Shown here in pieces: positions 1,808 through 38,870 of a DNA stretch of 64,000 nt. The stretch is from assembly GCA_021821305.1 (NCBI GenBank), contig JAKACP010000001.1, forward strand, positions 68,934 through 132,933. Direction: 5' to 3'. The stretch is from a bacterium. GTDB lineage: Bacteria > Patescibacteriota > Minisyncoccia > Moranbacterales > UBA1568. The number at the start of each line of letters is the position of its first letter. Position 1 is the first letter of the stretch. The notes beneath the pieces were generated by a model, which worked only from the letters and a program-made list of their open reading frames with translations, was not told where the DNA came from and searched no databases. The translations under genes and the position numbers were made by a program.

Positions 1808-2263
1808 ATGGATAATCCGATCGTTCTCCTCGCCGTACTCAACGTCATCCCGAGCACCCTGCCTGAGATTTTGTCCGACATAGCCTCCCTCAGACAAGGA
1901 AGGGGGTATTCCCCGTTCGGCGGGTCGTGCGCGATCAGCCGGTTCGTCAGGGAGTCCGGCGATGGTCCGGGTCCGCTTGAGCCGTTCCATACGCGGGAAA
2001 CCTGTGAAAAGGGTCTCATGGAACTGGCTCGGCTCGGACTCGTCAAAAAAGACGACGCCGGATACCGATTGACGTACGAGGGCATCGCGATGACCGCGGC
2101 GGTCATCAGGCGCGTGAAGAAGAAATACGGGCCCCAGGCACCCCCGCTTCCGTCCGCCGTACGCAAGGATCGGCCGGATCCGCCCGTCGAGCTCTCTCCA
2201 ATCTCCCGGCAGAAGCTCTTGGAGGAACTCGTCAAACGATACGCCGACGAGCAAAAACACTGA
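1808..2263 (+). CDS. hypothetical protein (151 aa), possible winged-helix fold
   Basis: A Shine-Dalgarno site aaaggag lies 8 nt upstream of the ATG. A clean terminator hairpin follows. No family is recognised. Confidence 0.5.
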   Translation: MDNPIVLLAVLNVIPSTLPEILSDIASLRQGRGYSPFGGSCAISRFVRESGDGPGPLEPFHTRETCEKGLMELARLGLVKKDDAGYRLTYEGIAMTAAVIRRVKKKYGPQAPPLPSAVRKDRPDPPVELSPISRQKLLEELVKRYADEQKH

Positions 2264-2265
2264 AC

Positions 2266-2297
2266 GGAGACATGTCAACCGACTGTCTCCGTTTTTT
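2266..2297 (+). terminator. rho-independent terminator
   Basis: ggagacatgtcaaccgactgtctcc is followed by gttttttc. Confidence 0.55.
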
Positions 2298-12531: not shown

Positions 12532-13347
12532 ATGATCGATATGGGCAACGCATTCGCATTCAAGGAAATCTGGAATGCCATACGCGGAATTATCCCCCAC
12601 GGAGCGAAGGAAACCCCGCTCGAGCAACAGATGCCGGGCGGACTTCTCCCGAGCTACGACGACGAGGCCATCTCGGCGGCACTCGATGCCACGCTCGCCA
12701 AGGAAAAGGGCCAGGAGTATCTGGACCGGATCATGGCTGTCCGTGAAAAACTCCAACCGCACCAGCGGGAACGTTGGCGGAAGGTGTACGGCACGATCAA
12801 GCTGACCGAACGGCACGAGAACGCGCTCTCTTCGAAGAAACAGACGAAAGTCGAAGCCTCCGCAAAGGGGCCGGCTCGCGAAGACAGCACCGAGGAATAT
12901 CAGCGGCGACAGCGGGACTACGAGTACACGCTCGAAGATCCCCGATTGGAGCACCTGATCCTCGTATCGGAAATGGCGCGGGACCATGGCGTGGATGCGG
13001 CGGTCACCTATCTCATCACCTCCGACTTCGCTCTCGAAAAATCTCTCGCAGAAAAATTCGATGTGCTGAAGAAGGCGGGCGGTGAGAAACTGACGCGGGG
13101 AGCATATTCCCTGTTTCTCGGGGACGAATACGAAAGAATCTGCGAGCAGAACCCGGGGAAACCCGTGGACGAGCTCGAAAAGATCTTCAAAAGCGCGCTC
13201 GTCGCCAAGACCGCCCGCGAAGAGCAGGCTCTGAAAAAGGCGCGAAAGGATCGCATCCTCCACGCCCGACCAGTGATGCTCGGCATCACCATCGCCCTCA
13301 CGGCGGTGATGATCGCCACCATCGGGTTCATACAATTTTTCAAGTGA
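12532..13347 (+). CDS. hypothetical tail-anchored protein (charged soluble N-terminal region, single C-terminal TM helix)
   Basis: It has a strong promoter and SD site. The 271-aa product ends in VMLGITIALTAVMIATIGFIQFF. No family is recognised. Confidence 0.55.
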   Translation: MIDMGNAFAFKEIWNAIRGIIPHGAKETPLEQQMPGGLLPSYDDEAISAALDATLAKEKGQEYLDRIMAVREKLQPHQRERWRKVYGTIKLTERHENALSSKKQTKVEASAKGPAREDSTEEYQRRQRDYEYTLEDPRLEHLILVSEMARDHGVDAAVTYLITSDFALEKSLAEKFDVLKKAGGEKLTRGAYSLFLGDEYERICEQNPGKPVDELEKIFKSALVAKTAREEQALKKARKDRILHARPVMLGITIALTAVMIATIGFIQFFK

Positions 13348-13360
13348 AAAGGAGTAGAGA

Positions 13361-14530
13361 ATGAGCTTCACGCACGCAAGCGCCATCCAGGGAAAACAGA
13401 TCCTGGAATGGGCGAACAAGTGGCACCAGACCGTCGTCCTCTGGACGATTGTCGGCGCCGTGTTCGCTCTCGCCCTCGGGGTCCTGGCCAACATGGCGGG
13501 ATTTCCGGGATTCAACTTCATCCTCGCGGCGATCACGCTGCTTGCCGGGATATTCTTCCTGACCAAGCCGGCGATCGTCCTCTCCGTAGCCGGTATCGGC
13601 TCGCTCACGAGCGGCCTGCCGGACATCAAGTTCGGAGAAATCCTGCGGAACGGGGTCGGATCGCTTCCGAACTTCGAACTGGAGAAAATTTTCGGGGCCG
13701 GATGGGACGCGATCAAGGCGACGGCTCACAAAGTCGCGAACGTACTCTTCCTCCTGGCGGTGATCTTCGTGGTTCTGGGGACGTTCCCGATAAGCGACGC
13801 GACGCTGGTCCTGCCGGCATTCGTCGTCCTGACCGGGGTCGGACTCTGGTCGGCACTCTTCGCCAAAGGCTATGTGTGGTACCGGAATATCACTATCGGT
13901 ATCCTGCTCATCGCCGGCGGCATCACCTTCTTCAAGCTGTACGACCCCGAAAGCAAGGTCGAACGGATCGAGGAAGCCCGGGCAGCACACCAAGAGGCGC
14001 TCATCGACGAGGCGTTGACACCCGTACTCCGGAAAGCGGAGAACGGCATCAAGCTGACCAAAGAAGAGGTGCGTATCCTCGATGCGGCGAAGAATCTGGA
14101 GGAAAGCCGATCGATCATTACGAAGGTCAAAGCGTTCGCTCTCGGACGGGTGATAGAGTATCGGGTGCCGAGCAACATCGCGCCCGAGAACCTGAAACCG
14201 ATCTGCGGAGTTCCTTCGGGAGAATACCGGTTGGAAGTGTCCGACGGTTCCCGTCTCGGAATCGGTCAACGCGATCAACCGGGAACTTCGACCGTAGCCC
14301 TCACCGGGCGAGCCGACCGGATCGCGAGAAGTGACCAGCTTCGCCGACAGGACTACCGTCCGTACGGATTCATGCTCAACGGATCCGGACATGAGGAGAC
14401 GGTCGCGGTCGCGAGGGACGGATGCCTGTTGCCATCATTCAATCTGACGTTCGAACAGGAGGACTTGTTCCGTGACAGACTCTGGTTGGCAAAACATTCG
14501 ACCATCCGTTTCGTTCTCAAGGGCATCTGA
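13361..14530 (+). CDS. hypothetical polytopic membrane protein (~6 TM) with a C-terminal soluble domain
   Basis: The SD site aaaggag precedes the ATG. It is co-oriented with the previous gene at 13 nt spacing. A terminator follows. Confidence 0.55.
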   Translation: MSFTHASAIQGKQILEWANKWHQTVVLWTIVGAVFALALGVLANMAGFPGFNFILAAITLLAGIFFLTKPAIVLSVAGIGSLTSGLPDIKFGEILRNGVGSLPNFELEKIFGAGWDAIKATAHKVANVLFLLAVIFVVLGTFPISDATLVLPAFVVLTGVGLWSALFAKGYVWYRNITIGILLIAGGITFFKLYDPESKVERIEEARAAHQEALIDEALTPVLRKAENGIKLTKEEVRILDAAKNLEESRSIITKVKAFALGRVIEYRVPSNIAPENLKPICGVPSGEYRLEVSDGSRLGIGQRDQPGTSTVALTGRADRIARSDQLRRQDYRPYGFMLNGSGHEETVAVARDGCLLPSFNLTFEQEDLFRDRLWLAKHSTIRFVLKGI

Positions 14531-14537
14531 ACCGACG

Positions 14538-14580
14538 ATAAAGGCGGTCCGATTAATTCGGAACCGCCTTTCTTTTTTTC
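14538..14580 (+). terminator. rho-independent terminator
   Basis: aaaggcggtccgattaattcggaaccgccttt is followed by ctttttttc. Confidence 0.55.
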
Positions 14581-14592: not shown

Positions 14593-15336
14593 CTAGAAAA
14601 GGTTCGCGACCTGCGTGACGAGCACGAGCGACCCGAGCGCGACCGCGATGCCGACGATCGCCCATTTGACGATCGCCTTGGCCGAATCCGCGCGCTTCTC
14701 GTCGCCGCCGGACGTGAGGTACATCATCCCGCCCCAGACGAGCATGACGATGGCGAGCACACCGACGAGCGAGAGGAGGAAGTTGAGGACGTTCTGTATG
14801 ATCTCTAAAAGGGTCGGCGCGGCTGTGACATTGGCATTCGGCGGCGTCCAGCCGAGAATGGTCGAGATTTCCTTGAGAAACGACGGCGCGGCGATGCCGA
14901 TCGCGAGTCCGATCATCGACGCGGTGATGGCCGCTTTGGCGGTCTTGATCCGACCCTCGTCGCCGGCGGAGACGATATAGAGTACCGCACCGATCACGAT
15001 GAAGACGAGCGAGAGCGTGACGATGATACCCTGGAGCGCGTCGAGCAGTTTGCCGAGCATGTCCTGCACCGTGTTATAGCCGAGCGGGTTGGAGATGGTG
15101 ATAGAGCCGGCAGCGGCGGCTACGGCACCTTGGCAACAGGATTCTCCTGCTCCGCAACTGACCATAAGGGGAGGGGGGATAATAGCGCCCGCACAAGAAA
15201 GCTGGCACGTTCCGGTGCCCGCGGCATTGCTGCACGACGCACCGACTACGGCATCCACATCCGCCACATCGATCGAAAACAGCATCCCTGAGAAAAGGAG
15301 AGCGAGAACGGCGACCGGCATCGATATTTGTTTCAT
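14593..15336 (-). CDS. secreted protein with two tandem copies of a pilin-like two-helix domain (TrbC/VirB2-like T4SS pilin candidate, fused duplication)
   Basis: It has a signal peptide (MKQISMPVAVLALLFSG) and a Cys-rich linker. Two repeats of the hydrophobic-SAGDE/SGGDE-xxxAK-hydrophobic motif are shared with the four neighbouring paralogs. The start is at an internal Met. The track ORF has a spurious N-terminal extension. Confidence 0.5.
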   Translation of the reverse strand: MKQISMPVAVLALLFSGMLFSIDVADVDAVVGASCSNAAGTGTCQLSCAGAIIPPPLMVSCGAGESCCQGAVAAAAGSITISNPLGYNTVQDMLGKLLDALQGIIVTLSLVFIVIGAVLYIVSAGDEGRIKTAKAAITASMIGLAIGIAAPSFLKEISTILGWTPPNANVTAAPTLLEIIQNVLNFLLSLVGVLAIVMLVWGGMMYLTSGGDEKRADSAKAIVKWAIVGIAVALGSLVLVTQVANLF

Positions 15337-15349
15337 AGGGTTCGAGAAA

Positions 15350-15745
15350 TTATAACGTGCTGGTATCGCCCGAGACGAGCGCGCCGATGGTCCGAATGAT
15401 GACGAGGCCCGAGAGCGCGACCGCAAGTCCGATCGCCGCGTATTTCGCCATGTTCTTGGCGGATTCGGCCTGCTTCTCGTCGCCGGCCGAGAGTATGTAC
15501 TGAAAGCCCGCGATGACGAAGGCGAGTGTCGCGGCGGCGGCCATGATGTAGAGGAGCCAGTTGAGCACGTTCTGCACCACCGCCATGACCGATTCATCGG
15601 AGAGCCCGGTCGCGGCGGCGGTCGGGACACAGACGCCGTTGATGACCGTCAGGTCGGCGGTGGGACAGCTCGTCACCGCCTGTGTGACGGAAGCCGACAC
15701 GGACATCCCGAGAAAAAGGATCACCGCGAACATCGTTTGTTTCAT
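15350..15745 (-). CDS. small secreted pilin-like protein (paralog family, SAGDE motif)
   Basis: A signal peptide is followed by NVLNWLLYIMAAAATLAFVIAGFQYILSAGDEKQAESAKNMAKYAAIGLAVALSGLVII. The start is at the internal MKQTMF. Confidence 0.5.
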   Translation of the reverse strand: MKQTMFAVILFLGMSVSASVTQAVTSCPTADLTVINGVCVPTAAATGLSDESVMAVVQNVLNWLLYIMAAAATLAFVIAGFQYILSAGDEKQAESAKNMAKYAAIGLAVALSGLVIIRTIGALVSGDTSTL

Positions 15746-15791
15746 AATGGACCATGAATAATTCGCCTCCAGTATACCGTTTCCGGAACGA

Positions 15792-15821
15792 AAAAACAAC
15801 CCCGTTTCGGGGGTTGTTTTT
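15792..15821. terminator. bidirectional hairpin terminator inside the pilin-like gene array
   Basis: aaaaacaaccccgtttcgggggttgttttt. Confidence 0.45.
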
Positions 15822-15856
15822 CGAAAATCCTTTCGAAAGGATCCGACTGCCTGAGA

Positions 15857-16237
15857 CTAGAGTTCCGTGGTGCTGCCGACTCCGACGAGGTTCGACACCG
15901 TACGAACGATGACGAGTCCGAGGAGGGCGACCACGAGGCCGATGATGGAATACGTGATAAGACCCTTCGCCTTCTCCGTCTTTCCTTCGTCGCCGGCCGC
16001 GGTGATATAGAGGATACCCGCGATGACGAACCCGAGAACGGCCAAGGCCGCGAGGAGATACAGGAGCCAGTTCATTATGAGCGTGATCATGTCCCGGATG
16101 GAAATCTCGGAAAGACCGGTCGCTCCGACGGAGGTATTGTCCGGATTCTCATCATACCCCGGGGTGAACTGCGCGCTCACGGCTATCGGAGCGAGCACCA
16201 GCATCGCCGCCATGACATACATGAACATTTTTTTCAT
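15857..16237 (-). CDS. small secreted pilin-like protein (paralog family, AAGDE motif)
   Basis: It has the signal peptide MKKMFMYVMAAMLVLAPIAVSA and the motif LIMNWLLYLLAALAVLGFVIAGILYITAAGDEGKTEKAKGLITYSIIGLVVALLGLVIV. Confidence 0.5.
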   Translation of the reverse strand: MKKMFMYVMAAMLVLAPIAVSAQFTPGYDENPDNTSVGATGLSEISIRDMITLIMNWLLYLLAALAVLGFVIAGILYITAAGDEGKTEKAKGLITYSIIGLVVALLGLVIVRTVSNLVGVGSTTEL

Positions 16238-16288
16238 ATTTGCTCACCTCCTTTCCTTTTATGTTTATCAGTTTCCACAAAAGAAACT

Positions 16289-16567
16289 CTAAAAGAAACT
16301 TCCGATCTGCCGGACGATGACGAGCGCACCGAGCGCCACCGCCACTCCGACACCGGCATACATCGCCGCCCGCTTGGCCTGTGCCGCGCGCTCCGTGTCG
16401 CCGGCCGACAGGAGGTACATCGCACCCGCGACCGCTAGCGCCAGTATAGCAAGAATTCCGAACGCGGACAACAAAAAGTCAAGAATATTGCCGAGCACTT
16501 CCGACACCGGCGGCGCGTCATCGATGACGCCGACCGCATGGGCTATCCGTATGAATGATATGTCCAT
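16289..16567 (-). CDS. small pilin-like protein (paralog family), no obvious signal peptide
   Basis: ILDFLLSAFGILAILALAVAGAMYLLSAGDTERAAQAKRAAMYAGVGVAVALGALVIV. Confidence 0.45.
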   Translation of the reverse strand: MDISFIRIAHAVGVIDDAPPVSEVLGNILDFLLSAFGILAILALAVAGAMYLLSAGDTERAAQAKRAAMYAGVGVAVALGALVIVRQIGSFF

Positions 16568-16579
16568 AAACGCGTGTCG

Positions 16580-17032
16580 CTAGAGTGCCGCGCCGCAATC
16601 GAACGAGAATCCTCCGGTCACGGAAAAGGTCGCGCTGATGCCGAGATCGCTCTCTGCGTCGAAGACGACGAACATGACGGTATTGACGATGATCCAGGCT
16701 GCGAGGATGATGACGAGTCCGGCAAGGGATGCGAAGACGCCCTTTTTGGCGGTTTCCATCATCCCCGGATTCCCGGCCGAGACGATGTACAGGATGCCCA
16801 TCGCCACGATGATGGCGAGCGCGGCGAAGACCATGATGTCACGGATGTAGGTCGTCAATACGGAAACACCGGACACCAGGTGACAGATCGAGCACTGCTC
16901 GGTTTCATTGTAGGTCGTACCCGGATCATCGGTATTCGCACCGCACGGCACGAGCCCCGCATCGGCCGGAGACGGCACCGCGAGAAATACCATGGCCGCG
17001 AACATGACCCCGAAGAAATATCTCATAGACAT
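16580..17032 (-). CDS. small secreted pilin-like protein (paralog family, SAGNPG variant)
   Basis: It has a signal peptide and a Cys-containing segment, then IMVFAALAIIVAMGILYIVSAGNPGMMETAKKGVFASLAGLVIILAAWIIV. Confidence 0.5.
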   Translation of the reverse strand: MSMRYFFGVMFAAMVFLAVPSPADAGLVPCGANTDDPGTTYNETEQCSICHLVSGVSVLTTYIRDIMVFAALAIIVAMGILYIVSAGNPGMMETAKKGVFASLAGLVIILAAWIIVNTVMFVVFDAESDLGISATFSVTGGFSFDCGAAL

Positions 17033-17042
17033 GATAGACCGG

Positions 17043-18440
17043 TTATTTCCTTTCGATGATCGCCCTCACCTGGGCGTCGGCGGATTGGAGAGCCCCCCTG
17101 ACGGTATTTTCTCCGCGATCGACCGATTCGATCGACTCGGCGAGCACGCCTTCCGCGCGTTCGATTTCACCGATCCTCCAACTCTTGGCGAGCAGATTGC
17201 CCGAAGCGAACGGCGCCAACCACGGGTCACGCTTCTGCTCCTCGATGAGGTCGCGGCGTGCGGCCGGCTTCTTGGTCTTGTCGAGATACAGCTTGGTCGG
17301 ATCGTCCTTGATCGGAAGCGTGACCGAGGTATCGCTCAAGGGATTGCGGAGCGTGACCGACTTCGCCGGATGCGGGAATGCGAAGTAGTGGAGGAACTGC
17401 CATGACTCATGGACACGGAGATCGTTGTATTTCCCCGCCGGGAACGGCGCCGGCTGGCCTTCCGCTATCACCGGCGCAGCCTTGTTCTTGGCGACGACGA
17501 AACTCCAGTAGTTGGCATAGTTGGACGGCTGGGAACCGGAAAATTGCGGGAGCGCCGCGACGGCGAAGTTGAGCTTGGCGTTCTTGCGGCGTATGGTGTC
17601 GATGTGCCAGGAGTAGTTGACCATCATCGCCAGGCTCCCTTCGTAGAAAGCGTCGATGGAATAATGCTGGCGGGAATTCCACGAATAGGACTCGGAACCG
17701 ATCTTCGAGAACTGGGAATAGAAGTCGAGCGCGCCGTTCATCGGATCACCCGCGATCTGGAACGTGTCGGCGGATCCCTTGGACTCGACACCGGCCCCTC
17801 GCTGGAGCGCGAGCGCGAGCAGGATATCGGGAGAGCGGTTGATATTCTTGGCGGTACCGAACGCCGCACCCGACTGCACGATGTTGCCGTAGGCATCGAT
17901 GGAACTCAGTGCCTTGGCATCGACGAGGAATTCATCCCAGGTCGAAGGCGGGTTGGCGATGCCGACCGCATTGAAGAGATCCTTGTTATAGTAAAGCGCG
18001 AGCGAATCGACCGAGAGCGGTGCGCCGTATGCCTTGCCCTCGACGATGAAGTCACGCGCGACCACATCGGCGAACGCGTCTCGATATTCCTTCTCCGAAA
18101 ACTGGTACGCGGGGGCGGGGGCGATGAGCGTCTCGAATTTCGGAAGCCACGAGTTGCGGATAAGGAATATGTCCGGCCCTTTCCCCTCGGCAAACGCCCG
18201 GACGATATCCTCCTGATAGGTCGCCTCCGACATCTTCCGGTAGGTGATGTTGTTGATATGGTCCTTGTTGAGCTCGCGGAATGCCGTAAGTGATTCCTGA
18301 TAGGCACCGGAATCATCGAACAGCCCCCAGATCTCGAGGTCGACCTTATACGGGGTGGGCGCGGCCTCCTTGCCGCAACCGGAGAGCGATATCGCGCCGA
18401 ACAGCACGGGAACCACCAGAAGCATCCGCAGGTATCGCAT
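17043..18440 (-). CDS. ABC-transporter-type extracellular solute-binding lipoprotein (family 1, sugar-type), orphan
   Basis: It has a lipobox (LSGC). The 465-aa product has an SBP_bac_1-like fold. No permease or ATPase genes are adjacent. Confidence 0.75.
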   Translation of the reverse strand: MRYLRMLLVVPVLFGAISLSGCGKEAAPTPYKVDLEIWGLFDDSGAYQESLTAFRELNKDHINNITYRKMSEATYQEDIVRAFAEGKGPDIFLIRNSWLPKFETLIAPAPAYQFSEKEYRDAFADVVARDFIVEGKAYGAPLSVDSLALYYNKDLFNAVGIANPPSTWDEFLVDAKALSSIDAYGNIVQSGAAFGTAKNINRSPDILLALALQRGAGVESKGSADTFQIAGDPMNGALDFYSQFSKIGSESYSWNSRQHYSIDAFYEGSLAMMVNYSWHIDTIRRKNAKLNFAVAALPQFSGSQPSNYANYWSFVVAKNKAAPVIAEGQPAPFPAGKYNDLRVHESWQFLHYFAFPHPAKSVTLRNPLSDTSVTLPIKDDPTKLYLDKTKKPAARRDLIEEQKRDPWLAPFASGNLLAKSWRIGEIERAEGVLAESIESVDRGENTVRGALQSADAQVRAIIERK

Positions 18441-18442: not shown

Positions 18443-18982
18443 CTATTTCGTTACGAGAAACGCGTAGTGAAAACCTCCGACGGGAATCTCCTGTCCGACC
18501 GTGAGTCCGGCTTCGGCGATGAGTTTCTTGAGGTCTTCCGGAGCGATGCGCGATCCGGCGTCAGGACCGACGCTCGCCGCGTCGGGGCTCCACTCCATGA
18601 CGAGCGCGTGCCCGCCCGGACGGAGGATGCGGGCCATCTCACGGAGAATGACCGACTTCTTCTCGTTCTGAAAAAGGATGTCCTTGGAAATCACCCAGTC
18701 GACGCTCGCGGGCGGCAGTCCCGAACCGTTCTCATTTTCGAGGTTCGCCCGACGAGTCGAGATGTTCTTGAGGCCCTGCGTCTTCATCTGGCTCTCGACC
18801 GCCTCGAGGGCCGAAGGAAGCACGTCGAGCGCGATCACATTCCCTTCATCGCCGACCGCCTTCGCGAATTCGACGGAAAAATACCCCGCTCCACAGCCGA
18901 AATCCGCGACGGTCCCTTGGGGCGCGATCGGAAGCGAACGCACGACCGCTTTCGGGTCAACGAACGTGGCAGGCATCATCAT
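18443..18982 (-). CDS. class I SAM-dependent methyltransferase
   Basis: The SAM-binding motif is DFGCGAGYFS with acidic loop ALDV. The start is at the internal MMMPATF because the longer ORF runs over tRNA-Ser. Confidence 0.7.
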   Translation of the reverse strand: MMMPATFVDPKAVVRSLPIAPQGTVADFGCGAGYFSVEFAKAVGDEGNVIALDVLPSALEAVESQMKTQGLKNISTRRANLENENGSGLPPASVDWVISKDILFQNEKKSVILREMARILRPGGHALVMEWSPDAASVGPDAGSRIAPEDLKKLIAEAGLTVGQEIPVGGFHYAFLVTK

Positions 18983-24161: not shown

Positions 24162-26954
24162 CTAACTCAGTCGATCTCCACGGCGTCCGGGTCTGGCCGG
24201 AGCCGCTTCCGGAGCGAGCGAGAAGACGAACCCGACCGTGAAGAGGAGGAGCGCCATGGTCGCGATCAGTTTGAACGAGAACAGGACCGACGCCGGGAGA
24301 TAGCTCGACACCGCAGCGAAGAACTTCTTCGGTCCAGATGCCATGATCGTGTCCGGCTCCATCACCTCGGCCTGCACCGACTTCGTGACGACCCTTTCAG
24401 CCGACGCCAGGGCCTCGACGCCCCAGATATCCCGGAGCGCGAATCGCTTCTCTTCCGGTTGGATTATCGATCCGGAGAATTGGATATTGTAGAGATCGCC
24501 GACGGTTTTGGCGACAGCCGGGGCATAGTCGATCTCGAACGGCACGGACTCGGTCACCGGCTCGCCGTCGACGCTCCATGACCGGGAAGAAAGTCCGCCG
24601 ACGAAAGACGGAATGAACTTCGCCTTCAGCTTGATGTTGCCGGTAACATACTTCTCGAAGGTATTCTCGCTGTAATCCGCGAACGTGGTCCCGTCGAGAG
24701 CGGTGTAGTCCCCGAGGTATTTCGGCCAGACTATCGTCGCGTCGGCGGATTCTATCGATACTTCCGGATCAACGACCTGGAACGTCCGCGACAGGGTCAC
24801 CGATTTCCCCGTAGCCGTATTCGTCGCGTTCACCTGGAGGGTATAGGTTTCCCCGGCACCCCCGGTGGCCGCGAAGAAGACACGATTCCCGGCGGCGCAT
24901 GCCCCGTCCCCTGATACGGCGTCCGTACAGGAAAGCGGTATGCCATTGAGCGTCCAGGAGAAGTCCGAAAGCCCGGTCGGGTCTATCTCGACGCCGACGA
25001 TCTCATCGTTCACGACGCGGCACGCCACTTTGTTGAGGTTTTCCATCGCCTCGCTTGCCGTCGAGGGATTCGGGTAGAACAGATTGCAGATCGGCGCCGC
25101 GGCCGACACGCGATACTTTCCCGTCACGGCATTAAGCGATGCCGAGGTCGAATAGGCCACGATCTTCTTGGTCGTGTTCGAGACACGGACGATGACGTCG
25201 CTTTTTCCGGTCCGTTCGACTCCGGAAGAGAAGTTTTCCTTGACGGTCGATCCGATCCGCAGATACAGGGGATCGGTTCCCAAAAGTCCGAGCGGCGTCA
25301 GGAAGGCGGTATCCATATTGAGCGCGACGAGAATCGAATCGAGGCCGTTCCCTGCGGACGTCTCCAACATCCCTCCCGTCACCAGATCCGCGGTGATATC
25401 CGTGAATCCGGTCACTGGATTATCGCTCACCTCCACCTGCCACGTATAGAGAAGCTCCGAAATCGGCCGTGAGGAATTGGTCACCGAAGCCGTCGCGGCT
25501 ATGACATCGCCCGTCTTTTCGGCGGTCTGATCGTTCGTCGGGTTATCCGGAGTGGCTGACACGGCTATGTCGAGTTTCTGCGATTTCCCCTGTCCGCCCT
25601 GCAGCGGATCGACGAGGTTTTTCGGAAGACAGGCATTGATATCGTCCTCGCTCATCGTGGTGGTCGGGATGCTCACGGAATAGCCGCGTATCGTCGTGCT
25701 ATAGCTCCCCTTGTTGATGACCGGACAGTCATTCTTCGAAAAGGCCCACATGATGGCATAGGATGAATCGTCGTGCTTGGTCGACATGATGGATGTCCCT
25801 TCGACCACGACACCGATCTGGTCCCCCGCCTGATAATTCCATTCGAATGTCTCCTGGCCGAGACCGACGACGTTGGCCTCATCCTTATTGCCGTTGTCGG
25901 CAGTGTCCGCATCATTCGGGTTGGTGCCCCAGAAGAATTCGTCACTAGCCCCGAACGTTCCGGCCGAATCACCGAACTGCAATCCGGAAGCGGATGTCCG
26001 AGGAAAGAGATGGACACACTTCTGGGACGTGCTCCCTCCGGTACAGCTGCTGAGCGAAGAGGTCAAGCTGTTGTACTGTGACTCGGTGAAGGTCGTGTTC
26101 GCGATGGAGAGATCGACGCACCGGGTCTGCATGGGCGAAGGGCACGAGGCCGTGGAACCGGAACAGCTCGGCGTCCCTGCTACATAGTATTCCGACGTGT
26201 TGCTGAACGTGTCATCGCTCGTCGGGTTGTTCGGATCTGACGTGATCGTACCGGGATTTATGGTGTCGGTGCCGTACACGCATGCGGCCGTATACCCGGC
26301 GGCGCAGGAGAACGACTGGGACGAAGAGGAGGATATGAGCTCGTAGAGGGTCCCGTTGTTCGAGTCGATCATGTAGCACCAGTCGTTCGTCGTATTCACC
26401 TGGTTGTTTCCTCCGTATTCGGCCCGGTATCCGTCCGAGTCCGTGTCGCTCCCGTAGTTGAAGCCGGCCTTGTCTGCGCCGTCGGTAGCGATTATCCGCG
26501 CGGCGGCGACCTTCCAGTCATTCACGGTGATACCGCCGGATCCATCGGCGTTGCAATAGGCGGGAGCGCCGCCAGCGCTCCCGAGATCGCATCCCTTGCG
26601 CTTGAGATACCAGGTGTAGTACAGCTGATCGCTCGGGTTCGAGAAAAGAATCGGGAACGCCCGGGCGATGATCTTCTCACCTTCCTTCGGATCGGTTGGG
26701 CTGAAGAAAATGTTCACTTCCGGAGGGGTTTTCTTGTTTCCGGAAACGTTGAACGCCTCGCTTATTTCCTGCACCGATCCCTGATTCACGTGATAACGCT
26801 GTTCGAGCTCCTTCGCGACCTGTGTCGCGGACGGGATCTTCGGCTTGCCTCCGAAAAGAGCGAGTGCCGGAACCGGGACCATCATCTGTACGATGACCGT
26901 GAGCGAGAGCGCGGATGAGGCGAATTTTTTCCATCTCATGTTCGTCGATTTCAT
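24162..26954 (-). CDS. large (~930 aa) secreted Cys-rich surface protein with a C-terminal TM anchor; last gene of the T4SS-like operon
   Basis: It has the signal peptide MKSTNMRWKKFASSALSLTVIVQMMVPVPALA, many Cys pairs and Ser/Thr/Gly/Asn-rich repeats. The C-terminal hydrophobic helix is followed by RPGRRGDRLS. Confidence 0.65.
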   Translation of the reverse strand: MKSTNMRWKKFASSALSLTVIVQMMVPVPALALFGGKPKIPSATQVAKELEQRYHVNQGSVQEISEAFNVSGNKKTPPEVNIFFSPTDPKEGEKIIARAFPILFSNPSDQLYYTWYLKRKGCDLGSAGGAPAYCNADGSGGITVNDWKVAAARIIATDGADKAGFNYGSDTDSDGYRAEYGGNNQVNTTNDWCYMIDSNNGTLYELISSSSSQSFSCAAGYTAACVYGTDTINPGTITSDPNNPTSDDTFSNTSEYYVAGTPSCSGSTASCPSPMQTRCVDLSIANTTFTESQYNSLTSSLSSCTGGSTSQKCVHLFPRTSASGLQFGDSAGTFGASDEFFWGTNPNDADTADNGNKDEANVVGLGQETFEWNYQAGDQIGVVVEGTSIMSTKHDDSSYAIMWAFSKNDCPVINKGSYSTTIRGYSVSIPTTTMSEDDINACLPKNLVDPLQGGQGKSQKLDIAVSATPDNPTNDQTAEKTGDVIAATASVTNSSRPISELLYTWQVEVSDNPVTGFTDITADLVTGGMLETSAGNGLDSILVALNMDTAFLTPLGLLGTDPLYLRIGSTVKENFSSGVERTGKSDVIVRVSNTTKKIVAYSTSASLNAVTGKYRVSAAAPICNLFYPNPSTASEAMENLNKVACRVVNDEIVGVEIDPTGLSDFSWTLNGIPLSCTDAVSGDGACAAGNRVFFAATGGAGETYTLQVNATNTATGKSVTLSRTFQVVDPEVSIESADATIVWPKYLGDYTALDGTTFADYSENTFEKYVTGNIKLKAKFIPSFVGGLSSRSWSVDGEPVTESVPFEIDYAPAVAKTVGDLYNIQFSGSIIQPEEKRFALRDIWGVEALASAERVVTKSVQAEVMEPDTIMASGPKKFFAAVSSYLPASVLFSFKLIATMALLLFTVGFVFSLAPEAAPARPGRRGDRLS

Positions 26955-26964
26955 AGGCTTAAGC

Positions 26965-27618
26965 TTATTTCGATATGAGAAAATACGCGTCGGCAAGGAA
27001 CAGGATGAGCCATCCGGATGCCCAGGAATAGTAGATGGAACGGGTGTACGAGGCGATGAATCCCGATGACAGGGCCGCGACCAGCAAGGGGGCGCTCTGC
27101 CAGAAAATTCCGTCGGTCACGAGGAGAAACGCCGAAAATATGGCGAATTGGAAAAATACAGCCGATAACCCGTATCGCCCGAGCCACAGAAGCTGTATGA
27201 ATCCGCGAAAGAACACCTCGTAGAGGAACGCGATCATGCCGACCGCGAACACCTCGTAGAGGAGAAATATCGGAAACGAGGACATCGCGAGCGAAGGGAG
27301 ATAGTATCCTTCGCCGACCGGATAATACCGGACCAGGAGATAGAGGACGGAGAGGGCCGAAACCGCCGCGAGCGGGACGGACAGCCACCCGAACCGTCGC
27401 ACGCTCGGACCGAGACCGATCGCGGAAACGGATTCCTTGCGGATCATCCGGACGTAGAGCACGGGAAGGATGCCGAGAAACGCGACGCCGAGGACGATCG
27501 ACTGGGTCACGCCGTTCAATTTCGCGTCGACCGGAAACAGATAGTAGGCCGAGAGCGCGAGCAGTACCGCCAACCCGTCGGCGAGGAACCGTTTCTTCGA
27601 GAGCATCATCGTAGTCAT
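26965..27618 (-). CDS. CPBP-family (CAAX protease/Abi) intramembrane metalloprotease
   Basis: The polytopic 217-aa product has the EVFFRGF motif (EExxxR-type motif 1) and further TM helices. Confidence 0.65.
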   Translation of the reverse strand: MTTMMLSKKRFLADGLAVLLALSAYYLFPVDAKLNGVTQSIVLGVAFLGILPVLYVRMIRKESVSAIGLGPSVRRFGWLSVPLAAVSALSVLYLLVRYYPVGEGYYLPSLAMSSFPIFLLYEVFAVGMIAFLYEVFFRGFIQLLWLGRYGLSAVFFQFAIFSAFLLVTDGIFWQSAPLLVAALSSGFIASYTRSIYYSWASGWLILFLADAYFLISK

Positions 27619-27658
27619 AGGAATCGTTCGTTTTTCTTTTCCGTATTATACACCGAAA

Positions 27659-28024
27659 TCAGGTTTTCCGCCTACTCCTCGCGGCTTCGGCCTGGGACAT
27701 GAACCGGATGGCGATCGCGGCCAACGTCTGGAGCGGGAGGAGATTAAGGACGATGAAGAGTCCCTCGATCATGCCGGTAAGCCCGAGGAGGACCCAGCGC
27801 TTGAGGAGCCGTTTGAATATCTCGCTCGCGTTTTGGGACATGATCTGCGGGTCGAGCATGACGATCATCATCTGTATCGATGTCGACATGAAGGCGAGCA
27901 CCGTCGTCACGCCCGGGAAATACCCCGTCGCGAAGTCGAGGATGTCGTCGAGCGCCCCGAACATGATGAGGAGCATCGAGATGATGAGGGAGGGCTGCTC
28001 CGGTTTCGGGACGTTGGCCGGCAT
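27659..28024 (-). CDS. small hypothetical membrane protein (121 aa, ~3 TM)
   Basis: It is an operon member between the VirB4-like ATPase gene and the CPBP gene. Confidence 0.5.
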   Translation of the reverse strand: MPANVPKPEQPSLIISMLLIMFGALDDILDFATGYFPGVTTVLAFMSTSIQMMIVMLDPQIMSQNASEIFKRLLKRWVLLGLTGMIEGLFIVLNLLPLQTLAAIAIRFMSQAEAARSRRKT

Positions 28025-28040
28025 ATCGTTGGTTCTCCGG

Positions 28041-30665
28041 TTATTTCCCCTCGTCGAAGTCCTTCTTCGCGGCGTCGATCTCGGCCAGCTGTCGCGGGTC
28101 GGTGGTGATGATCTGATCCTCGCTATACGACGCGATGACCTTGATCGCGACGTGCTTGGTGCCCGCGAAGAAGATGCCTTCGCCGACGTTGGATTCGAGG
28201 AGAAGGAACTTCTCGTGATCGGTGAGGTAGAACGTCTCGGCGATGAGGTCGACCGAGGCCGGCGACTGCTTGAGGAGGAGCTGCATCGACGAGTTCGTCA
28301 CGATCGGTTTGCCGTAGCGCGATGACATGAAGTCGGCGATATCCTGCGTGATCGTCGTGAGCCCCGTGTAGTATTTGCGACAGCGCTTCGCGATACCGAA
28401 GAGGAACGCGGCGGCATCCTCGTTCTGCATCATGATCCACGCCTCGTCGACGACCACCATGCGTCTGCGCATATCGGAACGCATCTCGTTCCAGATATAC
28501 TGGAGCACGACATACATCGCGATCGGGCGGAGCTCGTTCTCGAGGTCGCGGATATTGAACACGATGAGCTGCTTGTCCATCGAGATATTGGTCTGGTTGT
28601 TGAGAAATCCCCCGAACACGCCCTCGGTGTAGCGCTCGAGCCTCGCCGCGAGCGATTCGGCGCCCTCGAGGTTCCTCAACACCTCATAGAGATCCGCCAT
28701 CGTGGGGAACGACGTCGCGGTGAGCGTGGAGTAGTTCGTGGTCTCGGTGATGTCGCGGATGGCGTAGGTCTCGCGGATGGCACGGTCGAGGATGGAGTCC
28801 TCCTCCGGCGTCACGGCGCCGAGCATGAGATGGAGCAGTCCGATGAGGTTCGCGATATGGCTCCGGAGGACGCCCTCGTCGTCAGCGTCTTCCTTGCCCA
28901 CCTTGGGGAGGTCGAACGGGTTGAGGTGCGCCTGGGAGTTGAGCGCGATGCTCATGAACGTCCCGCCGACCGTCTCGCAGAGGTGTTTGTATTCGTTTTC
29001 CGGGTCGATGATGATGACGTTCGTCCCGAACATCATCGAACGGAGCACCTCGAGCTTGATCGTATAGCTTTTTCCGGCACCGGACTTCGCGAAGACCACC
29101 ATGTTAGCGTTCTCCATCTTGAACCGATCGAAGAGGACGAGCGAGTTGTTGTGCCGGTTGATGCCGTAAAGCACGCCGTCGTTCGACGAGAGATCGGAGG
29201 AGACGAACGGGAAGGTCGTCGAAAGCGGGGAGGTGTTGAGGTTGTTGGCGATATCGAGCGTGTCCATCGCGAGCGGCCGGGTCGCGACGAACCCCTGGTC
29301 CATGCGGAGCACGGCCGGCTTGGTGAACACGAGCTGGGCCTCGAGGATCGCCTCTATGTTCTTGGACAGCTCGTTGAGCGCGCTGTCGTCCTTGGCATAG
29401 ATCGTCATGTAGAGGCCGAAGCGGAAGAACTTCTCGGTTCCCTGCTGGAGCTTATCGCGGAGCTCCTCGATGTTCTGGAGCGCGGATTCGAGCACGGGGT
29501 CGCGTATCTTCCCCTCCTCCGCCTCGATGTTGATCTGCGACTGCACCTGCGTCGCGGCGCGGCGCAGGTCCTTGACGATGTCGCGCGTGTCGATCGGGTG
29601 GATGAAGAACGCGATATCCATCGGCGCATCCATGTTGATGATCGGCGAGAACCAGTTGGTGCCGAGATACTTCGGATACGCCACGATGAAATGCGTCCGG
29701 GAGGCGACTTCGCCGATCTGGATGGTGTTCGGGGTGAGCCGTATCGCCGGCGGCGCGATGAGGTCGCGAAGCGTCGCGACCCCCTTCTCATAGACCGCTT
29801 CGGTTTCGGAGATCGCCGATCCCGAGAAACGCGACGACTGCGGAGCGGCACCCGGGATGCTCGCGGAAGGCGCGGACTGAAAGTCTGCCAGATCGGCCGC
29901 GAAGGGACGATACTGGGACACGGGTGCGGATTCGGGTTCGACGGCCCGCTCCGGAGCGGAGGAGGGCTGTCTGAAGGCCGAAGGATCGATCGGGGCGAAC
30001 GTCTGGACCGGTGCGGCATCCAGCTGTGGCTCGGGTGTCGGCGCAGGCATCGGCTCCGGAGCTGGCGGGGTCGGAGCGGAATCCGGGACCGGATCAGGAA
30101 ACGGCCTCACGGGTGCGGGAGCATATTCCGGAACCGGTGTCGGTTGCGGCTCGGGTGTGATTTCGGGGACAGACGGAGGCTGTGGTGCTGGTGTGGACGC
30201 GGGTTCCGGCTCGGGTATGGGCTGTGGCACCGGTGTCGGTGTGGGCGTGCGCATCGGCTCCGGTTGCGGCGCGAGTGTCGGCTGTACGACTGGTTCGGCC
30301 ACAGGACGCGCGGCGACCGGAGGCACGTACGGAGCCGCGGACGACGGATACGGCTGCGACGGTCCGACGCCGATCAGGCTCGCCGAATGCGACGCCGGAT
30401 CGGTGAACGACGCGGGGGTAGAGTCGGCAGGAGTGATCGGCGAGTACGCCGGCTTGGCCATCGACGGAGAGACGTTCTGATATGCCTGGATGGGAAGCTG
30501 TCCGTTCGGGGCGGAGGCGAACGGCGACGGCGTCGGGGTCGCCGGCTGCGCGTTGACGAGCGGAGCGGAGGCGGCGGAAGAGGAATTTTTCTTGCCGAAA
30601 CCGAGCCAGCCGAGGAGCGACTTCTTCTTGTTGAGATCTTCCTTGAAAATGATCCTGTCCGTCAT
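28041..30665 (-). CDS. VirB4/TrsE/PrgJ-family T4SS ATPase with a ~330-aa Pro/Ala/Ser-rich low-complexity N-terminal region
   Basis: Walker A is VVFAKSGAGKSYT and Walker B is RMVVVDEAWIMM (the DEAW box typical of VirB4). The C-terminal region is conserved (LLLKQSPASVD). Confidence 0.8.
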   Translation of the reverse strand: MTDRIIFKEDLNKKKSLLGWLGFGKKNSSSAASAPLVNAQPATPTPSPFASAPNGQLPIQAYQNVSPSMAKPAYSPITPADSTPASFTDPASHSASLIGVGPSQPYPSSAAPYVPPVAARPVAEPVVQPTLAPQPEPMRTPTPTPVPQPIPEPEPASTPAPQPPSVPEITPEPQPTPVPEYAPAPVRPFPDPVPDSAPTPPAPEPMPAPTPEPQLDAAPVQTFAPIDPSAFRQPSSAPERAVEPESAPVSQYRPFAADLADFQSAPSASIPGAAPQSSRFSGSAISETEAVYEKGVATLRDLIAPPAIRLTPNTIQIGEVASRTHFIVAYPKYLGTNWFSPIINMDAPMDIAFFIHPIDTRDIVKDLRRAATQVQSQINIEAEEGKIRDPVLESALQNIEELRDKLQQGTEKFFRFGLYMTIYAKDDSALNELSKNIEAILEAQLVFTKPAVLRMDQGFVATRPLAMDTLDIANNLNTSPLSTTFPFVSSDLSSNDGVLYGINRHNNSLVLFDRFKMENANMVVFAKSGAGKSYTIKLEVLRSMMFGTNVIIIDPENEYKHLCETVGGTFMSIALNSQAHLNPFDLPKVGKEDADDEGVLRSHIANLIGLLHLMLGAVTPEEDSILDRAIRETYAIRDITETTNYSTLTATSFPTMADLYEVLRNLEGAESLAARLERYTEGVFGGFLNNQTNISMDKQLIVFNIRDLENELRPIAMYVVLQYIWNEMRSDMRRRMVVVDEAWIMMQNEDAAAFLFGIAKRCRKYYTGLTTITQDIADFMSSRYGKPIVTNSSMQLLLKQSPASVDLIAETFYLTDHEKFLLLESNVGEGIFFAGTKHVAIKVIASYSEDQIITTDPRQLAEIDAAKKDFDEGK

Positions 30666-30670
30666 AGGGG

Positions 30671-31360
30671 TCAGCGGTTATGGATCTCCATCTCATCCAC
30701 GTTGCGGACCACGGTCGTCGTGAAGAGCGACGGATTATAGGTGTTGTAGAGGAGCTCGATGATCTCCTCGGTGTTGAGCATCGTCGTCCGCACGCCGGTT
30801 CCCGACAGCGCGGCCGAAACCTGCTGTGCGCGCTGGAACAGCTGGCTCTTGTACGTCTCGAACAGCTCTCCGCGTCCGGACATGTGCTGTTTGGGGTTCA
30901 TGATGGCGCCGATTTTCCCGAACAATCCGCCCGACTGGGTCTCCGACGGAGCGAACGGGACGACGATATAGAAAAACTTCGACATGATGTTGGACACTTC
31001 GGTCAGGTTCTTGACGAAGTTCCGGTATTCGGAAATCTGGAAGCGCAAAAGCTCGTTCTCCTGCTTCTTCTCCTCCTCCTGGAGTTTCTCGAGATACGGC
31101 TCGATTCGGAACCGGCGCGAGTGCACGATGATCTGCACGGGAAAATCGAGCGAGTTCAGGAAGTTCTGATACTGCGCGATGATCGCATCCTGTTCCTCGC
31201 TCGACTTGAGATCGAAGTTGACCGAGGACGCGAGGAGCACCGCACGGAGACCCGAACTCTTGAGCACGATCACGCCGTCGCGGACCTCTTCCACGTCGAC
31301 ATACTTCTGGGTGCTCGCGGCCCCCGACGACACCTTCTTGTTTTTGTTGAGAAATTCCAC
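30671..31360 (-). CDS. hypothetical T4SS-associated protein (229 aa); resembles the N-terminal non-ATPase domain of VirB4-like proteins
   Basis: GVIVLKSSGLRAVLLASSVNFDLKSSEEQDAIIAQYQNFLNSLDFPVQIIVHSRR. It lies 5 nt upstream of the VirB4-like ORF. Confidence 0.45.
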   Translation of the reverse strand: MEFLNKNKKVSSGAASTQKYVDVEEVRDGVIVLKSSGLRAVLLASSVNFDLKSSEEQDAIIAQYQNFLNSLDFPVQIIVHSRRFRIEPYLEKLQEEEKKQENELLRFQISEYRNFVKNLTEVSNIMSKFFYIVVPFAPSETQSGGLFGKIGAIMNPKQHMSGRGELFETYKSQLFQRAQQVSAALSGTGVRTTMLNTEEIIELLYNTYNPSLFTTTVVRNVDEMEIHNR

Positions 31361-31397
31361 GCCGGTAAGATAAAATATGAACCTCGGATCGCGTGCG

Positions 31398-31796
31398 TCA
31401 CTTCCGGTCGATCATCTCCGCGAGGAGGCGGATATCTTCCGCGCTGACCGCCTTGGAGTGCGGCTGTGCCTCCGGCGTCTCGTTTCTTTTGGCCGTCGGT
31501 TTCCGGAGCATGCCGCCGACCGGGCGGTCCCACATCATCACCTTGGGTCGGAAGAGGAACAGGAAGGCGTTTCCGAAGTACGTGATGAGCGGTTGCCCGT
31601 TCGGGCGGTAGAAGGCGAGGGCGACGAAGAGCAGTACGACCGGGACCGCGGCGATGATCATGACCGCCCCGTCGAGGGCGAAGAAGATCGCGAGGAGCAC
31701 GCCCGTCATGCCGATCATCCAGAGCAGCTGCTTGACCGTGAGCGGCCCAGCGATCTTGTCCTCGACATCGATGAATTGGGGAACATTGAACATCAT
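31398..31796 (-). CDS. PrgI/VirB3-like small 2-TM protein
   Basis: The 132-aa product has two adjacent TM helices (LLWMIGMTGVLLAIFFAL / VMIIAAVPVVLLFVALAFY). It sits upstream of VirB4, as in Gram-positive T4SS loci. Confidence 0.45.
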   Translation of the reverse strand: MMFNVPQFIDVEDKIAGPLTVKQLLWMIGMTGVLLAIFFALDGAVMIIAAVPVVLLFVALAFYRPNGQPLITYFGNAFLFLFRPKVMMWDRPVGGMLRKPTAKRNETPEAQPHSKAVSAEDIRLLAEMIDRK

Positions 31797-31799
31797 ACG

Positions 31800-33074: not shown

Positions 33075-33077
33075 ATT

Positions 33078-35177: not shown

Positions 35178-35243
35178 AAATTAAGAAAAATAAAAAACCC
35201 CTTAAAAAATAAGAGGTTTAAGATATGGCCGAAAAATTAACGG

Positions 35244-35681: not shown

Positions 35682-36016
35682 GACGGTCTCCTTTCGAGAG
35701 ATTTGAGATCCGAACGGATCAGGGGAACTACGGTTTTTAAAGAAACAAAGGCTTATATCCACTGAACTCCTCTTTTGTGGAGTATCTCTTTATAGCAAAT
35801 TTTACGGATTTTGTCAATACTCCGACAAGTCGGAAAAGCACCATACTCCCTTATACAAGCCTCCCTGCCGTTTTCTTCCTATCCCAAGAAATGGTCCTTT
35901 CCCACCCCGGGCATGCATCCTCGTATCGAGGATGCCAGAACTCGTCGATCGGATGATTGGAGACAAGCTCAATGGTCTGATATTTGAGACAAGAGAGAGA
36001 AAATCAAAGAGCCCCT

Positions 36017-36517: not shown

Positions 36518-36599
36518 ACGCCTAAGGCAAAGTATAAAAGAAAAAAAAGAAGCTGTCCATCATGCGATGAACAGCCTTATAGCTAGTAGCGACCTAGTA

Positions 36600-37124: not shown

Positions 37125-37134
37125 TGCATACTCC

Positions 37135-38850: not shown

Positions 38851-38870
38851 TAACTGAGGGAGCGATACAG

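Follow-up and report, generated by a model that had tools for sequence, protein, structure and literature searches.

Why does a bacterium encode several divergent copies of one small pilin-like protein side by side, and do the copies act as interchangeable variants or as different parts of one machine? This question is raised by five genes, P1 to P5, in a stretch of 64,000 nucleotides (nt) from a Moranbacterales genome (Patescibacteriota; contig JAKACP010000001.1, positions 68,934 to 132,933), hereafter the window. An initial annotation, made from the sequence alone, had described their products as paralogous pilins of a type IV secretion system (T4SS). Based on family membership, locus comparison and selection, we conclude that P1-P5 are probably VirB2-like subunits with distinct roles in a single T4SS-dependent filament or conduit, associated with a chromosomal T4SS of the Gram-positive type (CD1110/MPF-FATA-like; MPF, mating-pair formation). 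The closest named homologues of the window proteins belong to Candidatus Moranbacteria/Moraniibacteriota.

Five tandem genes encode six two-helix pilin domains

The array consists of five head-to-tail open reading frames (ORFs) on the minus strand at positions 14593-17032, with intergenic gaps of 12, 51, 114 and 13 nt. Six two-helix pilin domains are spread over the five proteins (lengths in amino acids, aa):

16580-17032, minus strand: P1, 150 aa; signal-peptide-like N-terminus, Cys-containing N-terminal segment, loop SAGNPG and a 25-aa C-terminal tail
16289-16567, minus strand: P2, 92 aa; minimal pilin, no signal peptide
15857-16237, minus strand: P3, 126 aa; short pilin with a signal-peptide-like N-terminus
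15350-15745, minus strand: P4, 131 aa from ATG (MKQTMF); signal-peptide-like N-terminus and 2-Cys N-terminal segment
14593-15336, minus strand: P5, 247 aa; signal-peptide-like N-terminus, 6-Cys beta module, pilin domains a and b
15133-15234, minus strand: P5 6-Cys module (residues 35-68), behind the putative signal peptide and ahead of domain a
14857-15102, minus strand: P5 domain a (residues ~79-160), a pilin domain
14596-14856, minus strand: P5 domain b (residues 161-247), a pilin domain

The five consecutive minus-strand genes with a common two-helix pattern, as claimed initially, correspond to P1-P5. Alignment of the six domains gave the consensus ...N-W/F-LL...hydrophobic helix...Y-[IL]-x-[SA]-[AG]-G-[DN]-x5-6-AK...hydrophobic helix. 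Only Y, G, A, K and G, around the inter-helix loop, are invariant across the six, and pairwise identity ranges from 16 to 53% (P4 and P3 are 53% identical). The motif SAGDE, which had been called conserved, is present but is not strict: the loop reads SAGNPG in P1, AAGDE in P3 and SGGDE in P5 domain b. Hydropathy and AlphaFold hairpins agree on two hydrophobic helices and a short polar loop within the ~70-aa core of PF18895 (T4SS_pilin).

We scored the proteins against the Pfam T4SS_pilin and TrbC families, a check that the initial annotation had suggested. All five exceeded the PF18895 gathering threshold of 26.6 bits, with scores of 32.2 for P1, 40.3 for P2, 45.1 for P3, 45.4 for P4 and 75.5 for P5 (in two stretches), and E-values from 1e-7 to 3.5e-21, indicating that the pattern is far beyond chance. 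P2 also exceeded the threshold of PF04956 (TrbC/VirB2), with 30.2 bits against 27.9 bits, and P1, P3, P4 and P5 had no match to PF04956 at E<=0.1. A hidden Markov model (HMM) built on the six domains recovered them at E-values from 1e-31 to 1e-34 and detected no further pilin domain in a six-frame translation of the 64-kb window.

The claim that four of the proteins carry signal peptides agrees with our reading of P1, P3, P4 and P5, whose putative leaders consist of K/R followed by a hydrophobic segment and an A-x-A-like site (judged by eye with Kyte-Doolittle hydropathy); AlphaFold models of P3 and P5 place a separate N-terminal signal helix ahead of the hairpins. With a stop-to-stop ORF of just 96 aa, P2 is too short to carry a leader. 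A 149-aa form of P4 starting at TTG is merely the longest ORF.

The array proteins are related to VirB2

To compare the array with conjugative pilins, we aligned profiles with hhalign, using as reference an alignment (A6) of seven annotated virB2/trbC genes from MPF-T plasmids. With 89.7% probability (E 1.8e-6), the P2-type alignment (A3) matched A6 along 79 columns that run from the A-x-A site through helix 2, and the P3-type alignment (A2) matched with 62.7% probability (E 7.2e-5) over 35 columns covering helix 1. P2-type proteins consistently lack an N-terminal extension (median of 13 aa before the domain) and carry a nearly invariant A-x-A-G-V-I-x-D-A-P-P directly behind a leader of ~11 residues (A3). 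The alignment places their A-x-A on the leader-cleavage site of genuine VirB2 (P-A-x-A followed by Q, with cleavage between the two), which hints at a vestigial or unconventional processing site. PF04956 was matched by 23 of the 43 P2 orthologues (E<1e-3), and a tblastn search of 72,556 plasmids with P2 returned no match, indicating that P2 has no close plasmid-borne relative. For the NCBIfam model NF045849 (Mbov_0395 pilin-like; cut-off 40), P5 reached 41.2 only as the sum of its two domains and the single-domain proteins scored 17.8-26; by these scores, the array proteins appear to be relatives of that family and not members.

AlphaFold2 models, built on alignments of 80-87 sequences, were of moderate confidence. 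In the P5 model (predicted local distance difference test score, pLDDT, 79.8), a signal helix and three short strands within the Cys module precede four long helices that form two hairpins (H90-122/H127-160 and H176-208/H213-246); the P3 model (pLDDT 76.4) comprises a signal helix and one hairpin (H47-79/H84-122). Overall, the initial assignment of the proteins as TrbC/VirB2-type T4SS pilins is supported by the Pfam scores, by the match between P2-type proteins and VirB2, and by contiguity with T4SS genes in relatives, described below.

The array is linked to a chromosomal T4SS operon

Upstream of the array, the window contains a T4SS operon on the minus strand, for which eight genes are listed:

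24162-35177, minus strand: chromosomal T4SS operon
33078-35177, minus strand: 699-aa polytopic protein (op699), candidate VirB6 analogue by position only
31800-33074, minus strand: op424, T4SS operon
31398-31796, minus strand: PrgI/VirB3-like protein, PrgI PF12666 46 bits
30671-31360, minus strand: TrsD-like protein; TrsD match under cut-off, also matches the Mbov_0397 model
28041-30665, minus strand: VirB4; P-loop_TraG 103 bits, NCBIfam CD1110-family 351.6 bits against a cut-off of 325, N-domain match under cut-off
27659-28024, 26965-27618 and 24162-26996, minus strand: three membrane or secreted proteins downstream of VirB4

The window VirB4 also matches the Mbov_0397 model. Searches of Pfam, NCBIfam, PHROGs and PDB sequences did not confirm op699 as VirB6. 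As the initial annotation had estimated, the array lies about 7 kb from the VirB4 operon: P1 is 7.1 kb from the nearest operon gene (24162) and 11 kb from virB4 itself. Among loci with enough flanking sequence, homologues of PrgI, the TrsD-like protein and VirB4 lie directly downstream of the fused pilin gene in 10 of 89, and homologues of op699/op424 lie directly upstream of the array in 7 of 82. We regard this repeated and varied physical linkage in relatives as the strongest argument for assigning the array to the T4SS. No relaxase or coupling protein was found among the scanned window ORFs, which are mostly longer than ~300 aa; the other scanned ORFs encode housekeeping proteins (RNase Y, UvrD, PolA, a Mur ligase, sigma-70).

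Two of the operon's downstream genes have features of their own. The 217-aa polytopic protein at 26965-27618 (minus strand; op217) has an E-x-x-F-R-G motif and a weak match to CPBP glutamic-type intramembrane proteases (NF040589, 23.8 against a cut-off of 130), making it a candidate pilin-processing enzyme. The last operon gene, at 24162-26996 (minus strand; op944), encodes a secreted, Cys/Ser/Thr-rich protein of 944 aa with a C-terminal membrane anchor, possibly a surface adhesin, that matched nothing in Pfam, NCBIfam or PHROGs. PHROGs gave no match for P3, op699, op424, op944, op217 and op121, or for the 389- and 271-aa proteins encoded beside the array (unk389 and unk271). A LysM-LysM-CHAP wall hydrolase gene at 40591-41694 (minus strand) could encode the VirB1-type enzyme missing from the operon.

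The paralogues are old and individually conserved

We mapped 80 genome loci and fetched 84 more (80 metagenome loci and four poly-pilin loci, L087-L090), of which the 45 of at least 6 kb were mapped. Arrays contain 1-8 genes, with a mode of five, and in the P5-anchored set the order P1-P2-P3-P4-fused P5 recurs over ~80 Moranbacteria-like loci. In 46 loci the fused gene is immediately preceded by a P4-type gene; some other lineages have the fused gene at the head of the array. P1-type genes are first in arrays, and elsewhere their proteins have C-terminal tails with a median of 97 aa (up to 728) and N-terminal regions of up to 512 aa. In one close relative (L086; Logan SRR31838816), whose P5 is 83% identical to that of the window, no P1 was called in the 82 nt between the P2 gene and the gene that precedes P1 in the window (2189-2272), suggesting that P1 can be lost within the clade.

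Paralogues at 16-53% identity are saturated at synonymous sites, and we therefore determined the ratio of nonsynonymous to synonymous substitution rates (dN/dS) from orthologue pairs, comparing the window with loci L085 and L086 (proteins 84-98% identical). The ratios were 0.075 for P1, 0.20-0.23 for P2, 0.04-0.21 for P3, 0.17-0.26 for P4 and 0.16 for P5, and those of neighbouring genes were 0.01-0.32. P3 is the most conserved paralogue, with 98% and 94% identity to its closest orthologues and a dN/dS of 0.044. Differences among orthologues, in length as well as in sequence, are concentrated N-terminally, in the signal peptides and the segment following the Cys module, and in the linker.

The proposal that the array reflects diversifying paralogy is therefore not supported: each type has positional orthologues in ~80 loci, the order is fixed, and dN/dS is 0.04-0.26. 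Instead, the paralogues appear to be old and individually conserved, with diversification limited to ecto-modules between species. Epibiotic growth of Southlakia epibionticum depends on a T4SS pilin array from this Pfam family, and all six of its pilin genes (SEML1_0014-0019) are individually essential (Wang et al., 2023; PMC10633639). Old, conserved paralogues in the one case and individual essentiality in the other fit a heteromeric assembly with differentiated subunits.

P5 is a double pilin within a wider poly-pilin family

The statement that one ORF carries two complete copies of the domain is correct for P5, which has two Pfam stretches and two matches to the HMM of the six domains (E-values 1.8e-31 and 1.8e-33). 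The Cys-rich linker that had been placed between the two domains was mislocated: all six Cys residues lie at residues 35-68, N-terminal to both domains, and the inter-domain linker at ~155-175 (KEISTILGWTPPNANVTAAPT) is Cys-free. The Cys residues are spaced C-x8-C-x3-C-x12-C-x5-CC. This spacing resembles that of beta-defensins, but the module matched beta-defensins of the PDB only weakly and at non-significant E-values (0.76 and 1.7).

P5 has at least 357 homologous clusters, with relatives in 129 species-level genomes. In all of the best 120 homologues, a variable N-terminus precedes the same pair of C-terminal domains, and in 84 of 84 fused genes the first domain is a-type and the second b-type. 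The common architecture of the 120 rules out a recent local fusion or a frameshift artefact; the two-domain gene belongs instead to a conserved family. The N-terminal regions of fused-type proteins range from 30 to 744 aa; a C-x5-9-C-x3-C-x8-14-C-x5-CC module is present in 44 of the 120, and the remaining homologues have an N-terminal region without the module or with multiples of up to 20 Cys.

The profile of the six domains matched 72,277 representative clusters at E<=1e-3, and the top matches include single chains with 3, 4, 5, 6, 7, 8 and 17 pilin domains (the 17-domain chain is 1775 aa long). These poly-pilin sequences are continuous, with the loop motif in every repeat, and we judged a read-through artefact unlikely for this reason. 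Adjacent repeats are often near-identical, suggesting internal duplication. Named hosts are Candidatus Andersenbacteria and Peregrinibacteria, and four loci illustrate the contexts:

L089 (Andersenbacteria): GyrA, methyltransferase, solute-binding protein (SBP), three pilins, 6-domain pilin, three pilins
L087: same scheme as L089, with a 7-domain pilin
L088 (Peregrinibacteria): 7-domain pilin adjoining a PKD protein; VirD4-like gene ~4 kb away
L090: 8-domain pilin, pilin-PKD fusion, PKD protein

P5 thus appears to be the two-unit member of a wider poly-pilin theme with 2-17 domains per chain.

A methyltransferase-SBP pair heads the array

Directly upstream of P1, on the same strand, lie the lipoprotein and the small methyltransferase reported in the initial annotation:

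18443-18976, minus strand: class-I S-adenosylmethionine-dependent methyltransferase, 177 aa when started at the ATG of its orthologues; Pfam Methyltransf_31/25/11
17043-18440, minus strand: SBP_bac_1 lipoprotein, Pfam 82 bits; lipobox LSGC, N-terminus MRYLRMLLVVPVLFGAISLSGC, predicted to be membrane-tethered

The methyltransferase gene is the first of the co-directional cluster, and its orthologues encode proteins of 177-189 aa. Gaps of 2 nt between methyltransferase and SBP and of 10 nt between SBP and P1 suggest that all seven genes could be co-transcribed. The SBP had been called an orphan, which is right in that no permease or ATPase genes are adjacent to it; however, it is a conserved neighbour of the array together with the methyltransferase. 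Upstream of the array, a co-directional SBP gene is present in 64 of 82 loci (directly in 45), with a methyltransferase gene upstream of it in 59 of the 64. Within Moranbacteria this conservation could be plain synteny, because IF-2 and NusA are likewise conserved neighbours there. However, the pair (METHYLTRANSFERASE-SBP pair) recurs at the head of the L087 and L089 arrays beside different flanking genes (GyrA), with SBPs 33-36% and methyltransferases 32-37% identical to those of the window. The pair is absent from the arrays of Southlakia, L088 and L090. A functional link between the pair and the pilin array is plausible from this gene-order evidence, and both members of the pair are probably accessory factors transcribed together with the pilins.

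Signals within and beyond the array bear on its transcription:

15791-15844, minus strand: two tandem terminator-like hairpins after P3, ATCCTTTCGAAAGGAT+TTTT and AACAACCCC-loop-GGGGTTGTT+TTTT (scan match)
15771-15776, minus strand: conserved -10-like TATACT, 3' of the hairpins and ahead of P4
14541-14580, no strand assigned: bidirectional terminator-like hairpin, GGCGGTTCCG-AATTAA-CGGACCGCC with A-run and T-run flanks, read by eye

Across the window, L085, L086 and L001, the stem and T-tract of the second hairpin after P3 are invariant and its loop varies, consistent with a putative terminator function of the two. The hairpin at 14541-14580 sits between the convergent stops of P5 and the 389-aa gene. 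P3 has the strongest Shine-Dalgarno sequence of the array (AAAGGAAAGGAGGTGA). Because P3 combines the best ribosome-binding site with the highest conservation, and is followed by the hairpins and TATACT, we infer that P3 may be abundant, a candidate major subunit, and that P4-P5 may be transcribable separately from the upstream genes.

A heteromeric filament or conduit is the most probable assembly

In the assembly that we consider probable, P1, P3, P4 and P5 would be inserted through Sec, and P2 would enter without a leader. Each domain would form an N-out/C-out membrane hairpin with the Y-x-x-[SA]-[AG]-G-D-E...A-K loop in the cytoplasm; because both termini of a hairpin would face outward, a short external linker could connect two or more hairpins that sit side by side in the lattice. 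The VirB4 machine would extract the pilins and stack them as a single heteromeric structure, either a filament or a wall-spanning conduit, in which the paralogues have fixed, differing roles: P3, with P2 and P4, would form the body, and P1 and the double pilin P5 would serve as initiator, tip or adhesin-bearing subunits with lineage-variable ecto-modules such as the 6-Cys module. The fusion of pilin domains to PKD adhesin-type domains in L090, and their adjacency in L088, count in favour of this assembly. Since no relaxase or coupling protein was detected among the scanned ORFs of the window, its role is most likely host contact or exchange in an epibiotic lifestyle rather than conjugation.

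Several observations weigh against such a filament. In Foldseek searches of the PDB, the P5 and P3 models matched nothing but generic helical hairpins and bundles (best E 0.28 and 0.93), the top matches included no conjugative pilin, and sequence-profile searches of the PDB with alignments A1, A2 and A3 found no pilin (matches of A3 to designed "Pizza" propellers were rejected as an artefact, being the sum of seven ~4-bit AG-x-Y-x-T-x-G repeats). The generic matches of the P3 model include hairpins of ATP-synthase subunit c (non-significant), and equally generic ECOD assignments are given for the Southlakia pilins in the supplement of Wang et al., 2023 (PMC10633639); we consider the fold-search evidence uninformative, speaking neither for nor against pilin identity. 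The array and virB4 are non-contiguous in this window, Gram-positive-type T4SSs normally lack pili (PMC12102498, PMC12857230), and no filament of any PF18895 protein was reported in the literature that we examined. Poly-pilins with up to 17 hairpins per chain are awkward for subunit-wise extraction from the membrane. Leader cleavage was judged heuristically, and the expression and stoichiometry of the subunits, like the major role of P3, are putative.

Some of these points are what one would expect if the proteins, although true VirB2 homologues, stayed in the membrane as a ring, channel or short wall-spanning hetero-oligomer whose stoichiometry is set by the fused chains, by analogy with the multi-hairpin proteolipids in rotor rings of V/A-type ATPases. 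This non-filamentous membrane or wall assembly is the main rival, and we regard it as unlikely. Chains of 2-8 and 17 hairpins exist, the nearest generic folds include ATP-synthase subunit c (with similar ECOD matches for Southlakia), and monoderm T4SSs lack pili (PMC12102498), with no filament observed. However, domain counts of 2, 3, 4, 5, 6, 7, 8 and 17 fit no fixed ring stoichiometry, and the large, variable ecto-modules and the PKD fusions point to display off the cell surface. VirB2-family proteins of studied systems, moreover, polymerise.

That the paralogues are interchangeable major pilins providing antigenic or host-range variation, an idea also floated for Patescibacteria (PMC12102498), is in our view improbable. 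The divergence of the tandem copies (16-53% identity), the precedent of VirB2 paralogues in Anaplasma and Bartonella (as cited in PMC12102498) and the high variability of the N-terminal ecto-modules of P5 and P1 orthologues between species would suit it. By contrast, each type has positional orthologues in ~80 loci with whole-gene dN/dS of 0.04-0.26, neither recent duplication nor gene conversion is apparent, and the types differ in architecture, P2 being leaderless, P1 tailed and P5 always a then b; the essentiality of each of the six Southlakia genes also argues against redundancy. The least probable reading is that these are unrelated small membrane proteins, holin-like or bacteriocin-immunity proteins, and that the pilin label is a hydrophobic-hairpin artefact. 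Weak sub-threshold matches to Cyt_bd_oxida_II, Sdh_cyt, TctB and others, and the unspecific fold searches, are consistent with this, but it is effectively refuted by five proteins above a curated Pfam threshold, a conserved non-hydrophobic loop motif, a VirB2 profile-profile match that spans the whole domain, recurrent linkage to VirB4, PrgI, TrsD and a VirB6-like gene, and the lack of PHROG matches.

Under the preferred reading, a heteromeric T4SS filament or conduit, covalent double and multiple pilins limit the possible neighbour arrangements of subunits, and the methyltransferase-SBP pair and the CPBP-like protease are concrete candidates for accessory functions. We suggest more tentatively, as a possibility that we doubt more than we favour, that T4SS pilins of Paceibacteria-type Patescibacteria (Moranbacteria, Andersenbacteria and relatives) are part of a larger module in which the methyltransferase and tethered SBP would act in pilin maturation or in the capture of whatever the structure delivers, and poly-pilins (here P5) would template or cap the heteromeric filament or conduit. 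If so, the concatemers would restrict which lattice geometries are open to the pilus of a Gram-positive-type T4SS, and the SBP would tie the system to the uptake of host-derived solutes.

Other features of the window

Three further features of the window lie beside or apart from these systems. Convergent on the array, positions 12532-14530 (plus strand) encode a 271-aa protein whose C-terminus has a transmembrane segment and a polytopic protein of 389 aa whose C-terminal domain is soluble; both genes are syntenic with the array in part of the Moranbacteria (L001, L005, L009, L057, L082, L085 and L086), with dN/dS of 0.19-0.32. Adjoining the T4SS operon, ~6.5 kb at 34000-40500 have a G+C content of 0.47-0.48 against ~0.59 and may be an acquired island. 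This stretch contains minus-strand genes for a NUDIX hydrolase, a GreA-like factor, a thymidylate-kinase-like protein, a GNAT acetyltransferase and a metallophosphoesterase; the 5' end of op699, its transmembrane part, also falls inside the stretch, and the LysM-LysM-CHAP gene lies just past it. At 59397-62474 (plus strand), a 1025-aa protein with two T2SSE (PilB-type ATPase) stretches and MshEN looks like a tandem-duplicated ATPase of a type IV pilus or type II secretion system.

Comparison with known systems

Pilin arrays of this kind have been published, and the array described here is a further example, not a new system. A search of 3,035 genomes with PF18895 and PF04956 yielded 441 arrays of 2-11 genes in 383 assemblies, with a mean pilin identity of 25% and a maximum of 54%, an array being defined as at least two pilin genes in tandem or with one non-pilin gene between them (Quiñonero-Coronel et al., 2025; PMC12102498). 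With its five tandem genes, 16-53% identity and a CD1110-type VirB4 nearby, the window array falls under this definition. The T4SS of Patescibacteria is required for epibiotic growth in the single species tested, and its role has been described as completely unknown (PMC11665869); a 2025 review regards these systems as unique among monoderm T4SSs in their potential for pili, with the pilin arrays distinguishing them (PMC12857230). The window array resembles the published Patescibacteria arrays in its PF18895 proteins with or without PF04956 matches, its tandem divergent copies and its chromosomal, relaxase-poor T4SS of the Gram-positive type. It differs in lying 7 kb outside the T4SS operon, in ending in a two-domain pilin and in being headed by the methyltransferase-SBP pair; the Southlakia array lacks the pair and consists of six single-domain genes. 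The term "solute-binding" is absent from the main text of PMC12102498, which names KsgA (an rRNA enzyme) as its sole methyltransferase and mentions fusions only for VirB3-VirB4. In the literature searched, which was covered in part, we found no description of multi-domain VirB2-like pilins, of the methyltransferase-SBP pair, of a conserved terminator-like signal behind P3 or of cross-species orthology of the paralogues.

Like TrbC/VirB2 of MPF-T systems (A. tumefaciens VirB2), the window pilins have a two-helix core of ~70-80 aa after a putative leader with an A-x-A site. The loop is short and basic in VirB2 (FGRASLG), whereas in the window pilins it is longer and acidic-basic (AGDE...AK); four of the five window proteins are under the PF04956 threshold, and the monoderm host has a VirB4 of the CD1110 type and shows no VirB5/7/9/10. 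A second likeness is to Mbov_0395 (NF045849) of the Mycoplasma integrative and conjugative element, likewise a small two-helix protein of a wall-less or monoderm T4SS of the MPF-FATA type, where its gene adjoins that of the Mbov_0397 VirB4. Mbov_0395 proteins are single genes and the window pilins form an array, all five proteins of which match the model. V-/A-type ATPase proteolipids (c/K) occur both as single hairpins and as covalently concatenated multi-hairpin chains. The concatenation of hairpins is shared by analogy only, as a precedent for concatenated subunits within an oligomeric assembly: no sequence relationship to the window pilins is shown, and context, loop motif and extracellular modules differ.

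Tandem VirB2 paralogues of Rickettsiales and Bartonella (as cited in PMC12102498) also place divergent virB2 copies side by side. Those copies have been read as antigenic or host-interaction variants in diderm pathogens; by contrast, the types in the window are conserved one-to-one under purifying selection. Based on this comparison, the paralogues of the window array behave as fixed, differentiated parts of one assembly rather than as variants.

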